From a virus (Duplodnaviria > Heunggongvirae > Uroviricota > Caudoviricetes): a stretch of 32,291 nt of DNA. This document shows positions 14,265-18,122 of the stretch, piece after piece (positions within the stretch are counted from its first letter, which is position 1; each line of letters opens with the position of its first letter). Both the position numbers and the translations under genes were made by a program. Under the pieces are notes generated by a model. That model was not told the origin of the DNA. It worked only from the letters and a program-made list of their open reading frames with translations, and made no database searches. Where the stretch lies: positions 1-32,291 of IMG/VR virus record IMGVR_UViG_2925939204_000003. One strand, given 5' to 3'.

Positions 14265-14340
14265 GGCCCTTTAGCTCAGTGGTGAGAGCGAGCGACTCAT
14301 AATCGCCAGGTCGCTGGTTCAAATCCAGCAAGGGCCACCA
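14265..14340 (+). tRNA. tRNA-Ile2 (anticodon CAU, lysidine type; ileX/ileZ-like)
   Basis: Clean cloverleaf; anticodon loop CUCAUAA; close to recalled E. coli ileX sequence. Confidence 0.8.
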
Positions 14341-14341
14341 G

Positions 14342-14418
14342 CCGCCACTAGCTCATCAGGAAAGAGCGTCAACCCTTTAAGTTGAGTGTGCGAGGTTCGA
14401 GTCCCCGGTGGCGGTCCA
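14342..14418 (+). tRNA. tRNA-like gene, anticodon ambiguous (loop CCUUUAA, nominal UUU); possibly degenerate
   Basis: Acceptor, D and anticodon stems pair; position 33 is C not U; one A-C mismatch in T-stem. Confidence 0.45.
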
Positions 14419-14420
14419 GT

Positions 14421-14496
<76 letters not shown>

Positions 14497-14499
14497 TAT

Positions 14500-14574
<75 letters not shown>

Positions 14575-15456: not shown

Positions 15457-15990
15457 ATGAGCGCAAAAATCAAATACGGCCTGTCAGCTGCTGTTCTGGC
15501 GCTGATTGCTGCAGGCGCGTCTGCTCCTCAAATACTTGACCAGTTTCTGGATGAAAAAGAGGGTAACCACACTACGGCATACCGCGATGGTTCCGGTATA
15601 TGGACCATCTGTCGTGGTGCCACAATGGTGGATGGTAAGCCCGTCATACCGGGAATGAAGCTGTCGAAGGAAAAATGCGACCAGGTTAACGCTATTGAAC
15701 GTGATAAGGCGCTGGCATGGGTGGAGCGCAATATTAAAGTACCACTGACCGAACCACAGAAAGCGGGTATAGCGTCATTCTGTCCCTATAACATTGGCCC
15801 CGGTAAGTGTTTCCCGTCGACGTTTTATAAGCGGCTGAATGCCGGTGATCGTAAGGGCGCATGCGAGGCGATTCGCTGGTGGATAAAAGATGGTGGGCGC
15901 GATTGCCGCATACGTTCAAATAACTGCTATGGACAGGTTATTCGTCGTGACCAGGAAAGCGCATTAGCCTGTTGGGGGATAGATCAGTGA
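15457..15990 (+). CDS. R: SAR (signal-anchor-release) endolysin, lysozyme family
   Basis: N-terminal Ala/Gly-rich segment [17 protein letters not shown] followed by lysozyme-like domain; pairs with pinholin. Confidence 0.8.
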
Positions 15991-16454
15991 GCAGAGTCGC
16001 AGCGATTATTTATACTCTGGTTATCTGCACCATCGTCTGCCTGTCGTGGGCGGTCAATCATTACCGTGATAACGCCATCGCCTACAAAGAACAGCGTGAT
16101 AAAAAAGTCAGTGAGCTGAAGCAGGCGACTGCCACCATCGCTGACATGCAACAGCGTCAGCGTGATGTTGCTGCGCTCGATGCAAAGTACTCGAGAGAAT
16201 TAGCCAATGCGAAAGCTGAAAATGAAACTCTGCGCGCTGATGTTGCCGCTGGTCGTAAGCGCCTGCGGGTCAATGCCAGTTGCTCCGCAGCCGTGCGTGA
16301 AGCCACCGGACCCACCAGCGTGGATAATGCAACCAGCCCCCGACTGGCAGACACCGCTGAACGGGATTATTTCACCCTCAGAGAACGGTTGATGACGATG
16401 CAGAAGCAACTGGAAGGGGCACAGCTATACATTCGTGAGCAATGTCTCAGATAA
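15987..16454 (+). CDS. Rz: Rz-like inner-membrane spanin
   Basis: GTG start overlapping endolysin stop (GTGA) with SD GGGGGA; N-terminal TM then coiled-coil-like region. Confidence 0.7.
16207..16392 (+). CDS. Rz1: Rz1-like outer-membrane lipoprotein spanin embedded in Rz in +1 frame
   Basis: Lipobox VVSA-C and Pro-rich mature region; entirely inside Rz. Confidence 0.65.
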
Positions 16455-16594
16455 AAAACGGCCAAGGATAATCCGCTAAAGATTCGCCGGTGGCGAAAGA
16501 GAGCCAAGGTGTCAACCTACGCTATTACTTATGATAATGCAACAGACGAAGCGGGACATTCAGGTGCATAACAAAGCGTGGCAGGTGAACTGCA

Positions 16595-16622
16595 AACCTG
16601 AAAAGGCGCAAAAATCTGCGCC
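16595..16622 (-). terminator. Intrinsic terminator downstream of GNAT gene (minus strand)
   Basis: GGCGCA-gattt-TGCGCC followed by TTTTCAGGTTT on minus strand. Confidence 0.5.
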
Positions 16623-16632
16623 AGAATGGTAG

Positions 16633-17118
16633 TTATTTTGTGGTTTTGAAAAGTTTCATGTACTGATTGATAGGTTTTCCTGAGTAAGAATCTGTCCCTG
16701 GCTCAGGAGTATCAGATAAAACTTTTGCAGCTAATTTGTTGGAGGCTTGATTACCAACCCCGACAATAGCCTCTACATAGAATTCATTGAAGGAATTTCT
16801 AAATCCGTATTGCATTTCTTCAATGCTGGCGATGAGAAGTTGAGTACCGATGCCTTGCGCTTTATATTCATCGGCTACTGCATAGCCAACGCCAAAGCAT
16901 GGTTTACCTTCAACAAACTCTGCAGGGACATATATAGCAACACCTTTAACATTTTCTCCTTCAAAGAATGCATAAGTAAACCGTGGCGTACCCTCTGCAT
17001 CATCCAAAAGCACCTTCATATTTGGGTGAACTATGCATGGTGAAGGCTTAATCAGACCATTAGAAAAGGCGTATTGAAAACTAATTAATGAGTCTGTTGG
17101 ATCAACGAGTTCTGGCAT
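16633..17118 (-). CDS. GNAT family N-acetyltransferase (cargo gene, opposite strand)
   Basis: 161 aa; acetyl-CoA binding motif AQGIGTQLL; AT-rich; flanked by AT-rich intergenic DNA. Confidence 0.6.
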   Translation of the reverse strand: MPELVDPTDSLISFQYAFSNGLIKPSPCIVHPNMKVLLDDAEGTPRFTYAFFEGENVKGVAIYVPAEFVEGKPCFGVGYAVADEYKAQGIGTQLLIASIEEMQYGFRNSFNEFYVEAIVGVGNQASNKLAAKVLSDTPEPGTDSYSGKPINQYMKLFKTTK

Positions 17119-17362
17119 TTTGAGTCCTATGTATTTTGATATAAGCGATTCAACATACTACTTTCTTACGTTTAATTCTTTAACATTAACGAGCCAGGAT
17201 ACGAAATTTTGAAAAAGAGTAAAGTTTTTAATAATTCATTCAAAGCATATCGCATGTGCACATCTAAGAAAGGCTTTCAGCTGTGAGCCTGGGTAAACCG
17301 TAAACTTTCGGCGACTCTGCCGTGCGACAGGTTCACGTCTAACATGTCTAAAAGGAAGAGTT

Positions 17363-17563
17363 ATGAAGTTTCAGGCCGCTAAACTGTATCGTGGTAAACA
17401 TTTCGCAGGGTATGGGATTGCAGTTGATGGTGAGTTACTGGAAGGGCAGCTTTCCGCCAGGACAGAGTCACGCGGAGGCGAGCCACCAACAGTCACTGTG
17501 ACTTTCAGACTGACAGCAGAACATATCGAGAATCAGCCCGTCATTCAACTGAACAGGGGGTGA
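17363..17563 (+). CDS. Hypothetical small protein
   Basis: 66 aa with SD AAGGAAG; no family recognised. Confidence 0.45.
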   Translation: MKFQAAKLYRGKHFAGYGIAVDGELLEGQLSARTESRGGEPPTVTVTFRLTAEHIENQPVIQLNRG

Positions 17564-17570
17564 GGTATTT

Positions 17571-18122
17571 ATGCCATCACGAATCCCACGCGCCTGCCGT
17601 AAGCGTGGATGTGCAGGTACAACCACAGACAGTTCTGGTTACTGCGATAAACATCGTGGCGAAGGATGGGTACAGCATCAACGCGGACTGAGCCGCCACC
17701 AGCGTGGCTACTTCCTGCACTGTTACCGTCAGTTAATGAGGATAGATGTGATGACTAAAAATATCCGTAATCTGGCACTGGCAGCGATGTCGGGGTTTCG
17801 CCATAAAACTGTTGATGTGCCTGAATGGGAAGGGGCAACGGTTGTATTACGGGAACCTTCTGCAGAAGCCTGGTTGCGCTGGCAGGAGATCGTTAAAGCA
17901 AAAGATGATGAGACACCGTTATCCGTTGCGGAGCTCGCCCGCCGAAATCTGGAAGCGGATGTTGAACTGTTCATCGATGTTCTGTGTGATACCGGACTGC
18001 AACCTGTATTTTCAGTGGATGATCGTGAACAGGTGATTGCCGTGTATGGCCCGGTGCATGCGCGGCTTCTTCGGCAGTCTCTGGAACTGATCAGTGATGC
18101 CGGCGAGGTTAAAAAAAAGTAG
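17571..18122 (+). CDS. Tail assembly chaperone G-like, with N-terminal Cys-rich extension; alternative start 17751
   Basis: Directly upstream of tape measure; ends in slippery A-AAA-AAG then TAG; both 17571 (SD GGTGAGG) and 17751 (SD GAGGA) are plausible starts. Confidence 0.55.
   Translation: MPSRIPRACRKRGCAGTTTDSSGYCDKHRGEGWVQHQRGLSRHQRGYFLHCYRQLMRIDVMTKNIRNLALAAMSGFRHKTVDVPEWEGATVVLREPSAEAWLRWQEIVKAKDDETPLSVAELARRNLEADVELFIDVLCDTGLQPVFSVDDREQVIAVYGPVHARLLRQSLELISDAGEVKKK

Follow-up and report, generated by a model that had tools for sequence, protein, structure and literature searches.

Why should the late region of a prophage, in which all genes are read in one direction, carry a single acetyltransferase gene on the opposite strand? 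The question is raised by a 32,291-nucleotide stretch of tailed-phage DNA (Caudoviricetes; IMG/VR record IMGVR_UViG_2925939204_000003), which we call the window. On its − strand, positions 16633-17118 hold an ATG-initiated open reading frame of 161 amino acids that encodes a GNAT N-acetyltransferase (hereafter the GNAT). We found that the gene is a stand-alone moron in the bor/iss slot of an Escherichia coli prophage that is lambdoid, Qin-like, and defective. The best explanation of its presence, to which we give a probability of about one half, is that it is a single-gene acetyltransferase expressed in the lysogen and engaged in the conflict that sets phages or mobile elements against their hosts.

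The assignment to the GNAT superfamily comes from a profile match above threshold, from the acetyl-CoA motif, and from the predicted alpha/beta fold. Pfam Acetyltransf_1 (PF00583) matches residues 37-132 with 27.4 bits, against a gathering cut-off of 20.7 (E 4.4e-6), and RefSeq holds an identical protein, WP_001114684.1, under the name “GNAT family N-acetyltransferase.” All the genes around it lie on the + strand and belong to the phage late region (class II holin, DUF1327, lysozyme, Rz/Rz1, a 66-amino-acid open reading frame, and tail genes). The open reading frames, Pfam, RefSeq, and the strand of the neighbors thus agree with an earlier note on this DNA, which had described a reverse-strand GNAT of 161 amino acids opposite all flanking phage genes. 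The G+C content of the gene is 39.9% (30.9% at third codon positions), compared with a mean of 50.7% for the window and about 52% for the flanks. The 244 nucleotides upstream of it (17119-17362) have 36.9%, in line with the AT-rich upstream DNA reported in the same note. The ratio of non-synonymous to synonymous substitution rates (dN/dS) against seven orthologues ranges from 0.10 to 0.16, and the gene is under purifying selection.

The nature of the position is evident from related E. coli prophages, in which the interval between Rz and the HNH endonuclease gene occurs in three other versions. One holds a reverse-strand iss gene, coding for a serum-survival lipoprotein; another holds a reverse-strand gene of the YfbU family together with a small open reading frame; the third is empty, with 42 bp from the Rz stop to the HNH start. 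When the four versions were aligned, the flanks were common and the cargo was unrelated; the interval is therefore a classical bor/iss moron slot. Indeed, the GNAT has what distinguishes the morons of this slot: it stands alone, in reverse orientation, between Rz/Rz1 and the genes for packaging, and it is variably present in related prophages. The arrangement is that of lambda bor and E. coli iss, whereas the products differ: Bor and Iss are outer-membrane lipoproteins of about 97 amino acids, and the GNAT is a 161-residue enzyme, presumed cytoplasmic and unrelated to them in sequence.

The limits of the transferred piece were defined on an alignment of 14 loci from other Enterobacterales carrying GNAT orthologues of 57-92% identity. 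Nucleotide conservation runs from a hairpin behind the gene to about 240 nucleotides upstream of it and breaks off precisely at the start codon of the + strand gene that follows, and this gene differs between loci. On the 3′ side, conservation also covers the 3′-terminal part of a convergent gene for an o-spanin-type lipoprotein of 74-78 amino acids, which is intact in Enterobacter and Dryocola prophages (loci L003 and L011). In the window, a stub of the 33 C-terminal residues of this lipoprotein is left (16531-16632, + strand; open reading frame list and nucleotide alignment), although this prophage has its own Rz1 within Rz. The YfbU version of the slot, in phage 689R5, shares the stub segment up to about position 16562, and the stub appears to be the left-hand homology anchor for cargo exchange. 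The cassette proper spans about 16600-17362; the alignment indicates that it was imported by recombination from a prophage of the Enterobacter/Dryocola type, together with the stub of that prophage’s o-spanin gene. The suggestion that the gene is a horizontally acquired moron is hence borne out by the polymorphism of the slot, by the foreign base composition, and by the relic of another phage’s o-spanin on the 3′ side.

An exact 10-nt direct repeat, ACTGGAAGGG, present at the 3′ end of Rz (16409-16418) and within the 66-amino-acid open reading frame (17437-17446), brackets most of the cargo and was considered as an insertion scar. We rejected it: in the alignment with the empty slot the 3′ ends of Rz are merely divergent, and the repeat is probably due to chance.

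The cassette carries signals of its own on both sides of the gene. The conserved AT-rich 5′ region (17119-17362, − strand), defined on the alignment of 14 loci, contains a Shine-Dalgarno AGGA at 17128-17125, 6 nt ahead of the GNAT ATG. It also includes a weak candidate promoter on the − strand (−35 TTGAAT at 17243-17238, a 16-nt spacer, −10 TACTCT at 17221-17216) that is conserved and matches the sigma-70 consensus at 7 of 12 positions. A consensus scan found no match of 9/12 or better on the − strand, and for this reason an own promoter of the GNAT can only be presumed. Of the claim of an own promoter region, then, the AT-rich conserved 5′ region stood, and the promoter itself stayed conjectural. 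At the place of the downstream terminator proposed in the note, a conserved terminator-like hairpin with a short U tract, identified by sequence, fold, and conservation, starts 10 nt past the GNAT stop (16622-16601, − strand). It reads GGCGCAG-AUUU-UUGCGCC, a GC-rich stem of 7 bp with the 5′ arm at 16622-16616, the loop at 16615-16612, the 3′ arm at 16611-16605, and UUUU at 16604-16601. The 56-nt stretch containing it folds at −13.6 kcal/mol (z = −2.6). The stem GGCGC/GCGCC is kept in relatives, and the group at 57% identity has a hairpin of different sequence in the same position. A consensus terminator scan detected none downstream of the gene because it requires five U and this tract has four.

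The 5′ region was also considered as a structured RNA or riboswitch, an idea that found no support: Rfam returned nothing significant, RNAalifold gave a positive (unfavorable) covariation term, and the pairs of an inverted repeat break in divergent sequences. This repeat, GTGAGCCTG ... CAGGTTCAC (17283-17291 and 17328-17336), is an imperfect one of 9 bp within a GC-richer block of the AT-rich region, reaching as far as the ribosome-binding site that serves the following + strand gene. The sequence of the repeat, which may be an operator, an insulator, or without a role, is kept in close relatives. The only − strand open reading frames in 17119-17362 have 29 and 22 codons, and stops interrupt both in relatives. 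A search for upstream frames shorter than 60 amino acids, which the note had recommended, therefore gave only these two, neither conserved as a reading frame.

The flanks of the slot are ordinary parts of a lambdoid late region. On the left, Rz, the i-spanin, occupies 15972-16454 (+ strand; Pfam Phage_lysis, 1.9e-49; RefSeq “lysis protein”), and Rz1 is embedded in it at 16207-16392 (+ strand; lipobox; RefSeq “Rz1 family lipoprotein”). On the right, divergent from the GNAT, the 66-amino-acid open reading frame WP_016240599.1 (17363-17563, + strand) has no Pfam match and a normal G+C content. In E. coli it accompanies the GNAT, but neither the Enterobacter-type relatives nor the other three versions of the slot have it; it is a piece separate from the GNAT cassette. 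Then comes a chimeric open reading frame (17571-18122, + strand) in which Pfam recognizes about 47 residues of an HNH N-terminus followed by Phage_TAC_1 (residues 61-183). Its tail assembly chaperone part is complete, and identity to relatives with intact HNH and terminase genes ends at about 17710. Judging from this junction, a deletion removed the rest of the HNH gene, both terminase subunits, and the portal, protease, capsid, and head-tail genes, and the prophage is thereby unable to package DNA.

The stretch 16400-17700 is 99.9-100% identical to the chromosome in 62 of 5426 complete E. coli genomes. In E. coli AR_0128 the corresponding prophage adjoins tRNA-Ser/mtfA and has a Qin-type early region (dicB, ydfC, hokD, Q, tRNA cluster), followed by holin, lysozyme, Rz, GNAT, the 66-amino-acid open reading frame, HNH endonuclease, and P27-type terminase. 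The four-tRNA cluster of the window (CAT, Lys-TTT, Thr-TGT, Gly-TCC; 14265-14574, + strand) lies between the Q antiterminator and the holin; its CAT tRNA is called Met by ARAGORN and Ile by RefSeq in the identical AR_0128 prophage. As for the alternative cargo of the slot, the reverse-strand YfbU-domain protein has 179 amino acids (locus L002, 4483-5022, in phage vB_EcoS-689R5; also in the E. coli hits H39 and H40). A faint match links it to the Cfr10I/Bse634I family of restriction endonucleases, and it is another uncharacterized moron.

How widespread is the protein outside this prophage? Homologues fall into 39 clusters at 90% identity, and a HMMER scan of 1.84 billion representatives retrieved 421 clusters (50% identity) at E ≤ 1e-3, of which 270 at E ≤ 1e-10. 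Nearly all members of the 421 clusters have about 155-170 amino acids and align from end to end. On these alignments the GNAT belongs to a distinct, uncharacterized family of about 160 residues. Across 37 sequences, down to 38% identity, 18 residues are invariant (P7, A17, C28, D39, R46, Y49, C74, F75, Y79, A80, G89, E116, A117, G120, N123, S126, S146, and G147), and Y153 is nearly so. The motif that binds the acetyl-CoA pyrophosphate (Q/R-x-x-G-x-G/A, behind strand beta4) reads K86-A-Q-G89-I-G91 here and R-x-Q-G-x-A in the family consensus, with G89 invariant. The AlphaFold model (predicted local distance difference test, pLDDT, of 92) has GNAT topology, and structure comparison returned matches of the GNAT fold. 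Profile databases were of little help: NCBIfam had no match at E ≤ 10 except a stray 11.6 bits to Pat, PADLOC-DB v2 had no family match at E ≤ 10, PHROGs had nothing specific for the protein, and our literature searches found no paper on the family.

The closest characterized proteins are N-terminal acetyltransferases. In a search of the PDB with the family profile, the archaeal Nat SSO0209 was best (E 6e-4), followed by Naa30, RimL, and RimI. The family strand Y-V-E-A-I, which contains E116, aligns with Y-L-E-V-R of the Nat and RimI enzymes, whose glutamate is the general base. The similarity is limited: about 42 residues align with SSO0209, RimI, RimL, and Naa30, identity is 14-23%, and the template modeling (TM) score is at most 0.59. 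Unlike in Nat and RimI, the N-terminal third, with the invariant P7, A17, and C28, and two invariant cysteines are specific to the GNAT family. Furthermore, the gene is mobile, unlike those of the housekeeping N-terminal acetyltransferases. Members of the family are restricted to mobile elements and variable islands, which speaks against the housekeeping-type assignment that the note had put forward as a way to overturn its reading.

The same placement recurs in prophages of other hosts. The gene runs opposite to the late genes, between spanin/endolysin and HNH/terminase, in Enterobacter hormaechei, Dryocola, E. mori, and IMG/VR proviruses; Yersinia prophages, which have a different packaging module, carry it between the genes for the two terminase subunits, small and large, once more in reverse orientation. 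Opposite-strand placement in the lysis/packaging region is thus common to Enterobacter, Dryocola, Leclercia-type, and Yersinia prophages with different terminases.

Relatives outside prophages were found on plasmids, integrative elements, and variable islands. PLSDB contains 34 plasmids with relatives, 17 of them conjugative, and at plasmid loci of the Pseudomonas type the gene sits in runs of small co-oriented hypothetical open reading frames downstream of a small tyrosine recombinase. In about 16 of 30 non-prophage loci, a defence gene recognized by PADLOC, Pfam, or PGAP lies within about 7 kb, a count made without a background control. Pycsar stands beside relatives twice, in a Hyphomicrobiaceae metagenome-assembled genome (L018) and on P. 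aeruginosa p382 (L069). Single loci have an ApeA-like HEPN protein with an HNH effector (L021), Drt3b (L028), DUF4917/PDC-S21 (L014), an ABC-3C pair/PDC-M68B (L017), or nSTAND3 (L066) near the relative, and Abi-family genes occur at three (L063, L072, L073). A TIR protein is also among the neighboring defence genes. At two unrelated loci, a metagenomic contig (L065, 889-4411) and Agrobacterium plasmid pAt2 (L070, 1-2686), an AAA ATPase and an S8 peptidase are paired within a few kilobases of the relative, an architecture that we take to be ietAS-like.

Some of these neighbors are packed tightly against the gene. In L016, 9 nt separate the end of a DUF3644/PDC-S19 gene from the start of the GNAT that follows it on the same strand, and the gene of a PLD protein ends 3 nt before another relative; a methyltransferase is also among the neighbors recorded for the family. 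Same-strand abutment with defence genes, 3-9 nt apart, is seen at L016 and L073. A QueC-like gene overlaps the start of one further relative. One metagenomic protein (P0092) has a Mrr-nSTAND1 NTPase fused to a GNAT of this family. We did not retain it as evidence for an effector role, as it is a singleton and about 120 relatives of the NTPase (~910 amino acids) lack the GNAT; for the latter reason the fusion is probably a read-through of adjacent genes, and it was kept as an instance of adjacency only.

Taken as a working model, the anatomy of the cassette would have the GNAT transcribed in the lysogen from its own promoter and independently of the late operon, as are bor and iss. The protein would bind acetyl-CoA through its intact K/R-x-x-G-x-G/A motif and acetylate a primary amine, most likely that of a protein or peptide, because the only specific similarity, a weak one in a short motif alignment, is to N-terminal acetyltransferases. 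That the family resides exclusively on mobile elements and next to immune systems suggests that it takes part in conflicts of phages or mobile elements with their hosts. In the most likely version, the GNAT would modify a protein of the host or of an incoming phage and so protect the lysogen from other phages, a version that we favor because of the lysogen-type placement together with the tight packing with defence genes.

Several observations weigh against this explanation. The link to defence is guilt by association: the first six loci were selected by visual inspection, and the hits include generic ones (a kinase, QueC) and weak ones (PDC-S31). The GNAT protein itself matches no PADLOC model. 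The promoter that expression in the lysogen would need was not identified in the consensus scan, the best candidate being the 7/12 match. A tblastn search of 50,697 GenBank phage records found no homologue, an absence in keeping with a gene that has to date been seen in integrated prophages alone. Finally, two kinds of neighborhood point to anti-defence instead, namely, the locus L062, where the neighbors are an AcrVA2-like gene, an ADP-ribosylglycohydrolase gene, and NAD salvage genes, and the runs of small co-oriented open reading frames around plasmid relatives.

Anti-defence is accordingly the first alternative to weigh. It holds that acetylation inactivates an immune protein of the host and so protects the prophage or plasmid during entry and residence, which we regard as possible and rather unlikely. 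There is a precedent: acetylation by the phage GNATs AcrVA5 and AcrVA5Bsp inhibits Cas12a (PMC10799925), and they too are small, stand-alone prophage GNATs that act on proteins in phage-host conflict, the conflict role being a proposal on the side of the GNAT described here. The resemblance does not go further, for specific similarity to AcrVA5 was not detectable, the best structural matches do not include it, and the GNAT is larger and has many chromosomal relatives beside defence genes. It also occurs in hosts without Cas12a; to our knowledge, E. coli is one of them.

The L062 relative (GCA_015665085.1, contig JADGMW010000005.1, 1-14486) speaks in favor of this alternative: a RecA-dependent nuclease gene joins the AcrVA2-like, ADP-ribosylglycohydrolase, and NAD salvage genes around it, and it looks like a gene embedded in an anti-defence island. 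The contig also carries RNase H and CYTH genes and adjoins HsdR, and its NAD-salvage set comprises NadE, NAPRTase, a nicotinamidase-type isochorismatase, a nucleotidyltransferase, and NUDIX. The Pseudomonas-type plasmid copies, placed after a small recombinase, argue in the same direction, as anti-defence genes of conjugative elements tend to occupy such regions of small open reading frames. Against it, the prophage copy lies inside the late region and opposite to it, in a lysogenic-conversion slot (bor/iss) rather than among early genes, and many relatives are chromosomal and abut defence genes, some on the same strand at 3-9 nt.

About equally improbable, in our judgment, is a lysogenic-conversion gene for detoxification or resistance, whose product would benefit the host directly by acetylating some small molecule, such as an antibiotic, a peptide-nucleotide microcin, a toxic analogue of an amino acid, or a polyamine. 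Its appeal is that iss and bor, the other morons of the slot, are host-benefit genes, and that one plasmid relative lies about 0.8 kb downstream of qnrS. The neighborhoods, on the other hand, hold mainly defence, toxin-antitoxin, and mobile-element genes rather than resistance cassettes. Among the NCBIfam models are those that NCBI uses for resistance acetyltransferases, and at E ≤ 10 the stray Pat match was all that it returned. The best aminoglycoside enzyme reached E 0.62 in the PDB family-profile search, and in fold comparison such enzymes did not score above GNATs of any other kind. The idea of a resistance enzyme, raised in the earlier note, is thus unsupported.

The other half of that suggestion, a toxin, fared worse. 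A type II toxin-antitoxin toxin acetylating charged tRNA, either orphaned or with an unrecognized antitoxin, would share with TacT, AtaT, KacT, and ItaT the GNAT fold, a length of about 160-175 amino acids, and a residence on mobile elements. We consider it very improbable. Unlike those toxins, the GNAT has no antitoxin gene and no sequence similarity to them, and it is not closer to toxins than to other GNATs. No gene for a ribbon-helix-helix (RHH)/DUF1778 antitoxin and no conserved upstream frame was found beside it in the window, where no other partner frame was present either. Clustering of neighboring open reading frames in 30 loci and then in 15 plasmid-type loci (about 45 in total) gave no conserved adjacent gene, which upholds the statement that this is a single gene lacking a partner antitoxin. 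DUF1778 did not match any of the Pfam-annotated neighbor products of relatives, and tRNA-acetylating toxins were absent from the PDB searches at E ≤ 10, both with the single sequence and with the family profile. An unpaired constitutive toxin would, moreover, be hard to square with a dN/dS of about 0.12 and 62 near-identical E. coli copies. From these comparisons, neither a toxin nor a known antibiotic-resistance enzyme is supported. Just as improbable is a decaying passenger with no current function, which the loss of terminase and head genes and the adjoining spanin stub might suggest, against an intact full-length frame and acetyl-CoA motif, the 18 invariant residues, dN/dS values of 0.10-0.16, and intact copies in prophages that retain all packaging genes.

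A further parallel is offered by Rac of the phiKMV-like phages. Rac is reported to be a predicted GNAT that triggers cleavage of the alpha subunit of RNA polymerase (PMC7552054). Both are thus phage-encoded predicted GNATs, and Rac acts on a host protein. Unlike Rac, an early gene of lytic Pseudomonas phages, the GNAT is a prophage moron that has no homologue in the 50,697 GenBank phage records.

As an object, the gene is of an ordinary and already known kind, a moron in the best-known lambdoid moron slot with a generic GNAT annotation. What is of interest is the family: compact, conserved, and partner-less, carried by prophages, plasmids, and variable islands, without an entry in PADLOC, and found repeatedly beside Pycsar, ApeA, DRT, STAND, and AAA+S8 systems. 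Tentatively, and with less confidence than we place in the conflict role as such, we suggest that it may be an unrecognized single-gene player in bacterial immunity that works through protein acetylation, either as a stand-alone anti-phage factor, which temperate phages would carry as a moron and plasmids and defence islands as cargo, or as a broad-range anti-defence factor unrelated to AcrVA5. Should the GNAT protect the lysogen or disarm immune proteins by acetylation, this would be a new chemistry for single-gene immunity, and the 161-residue protein would provide a simple, testable model of it in E. coli.

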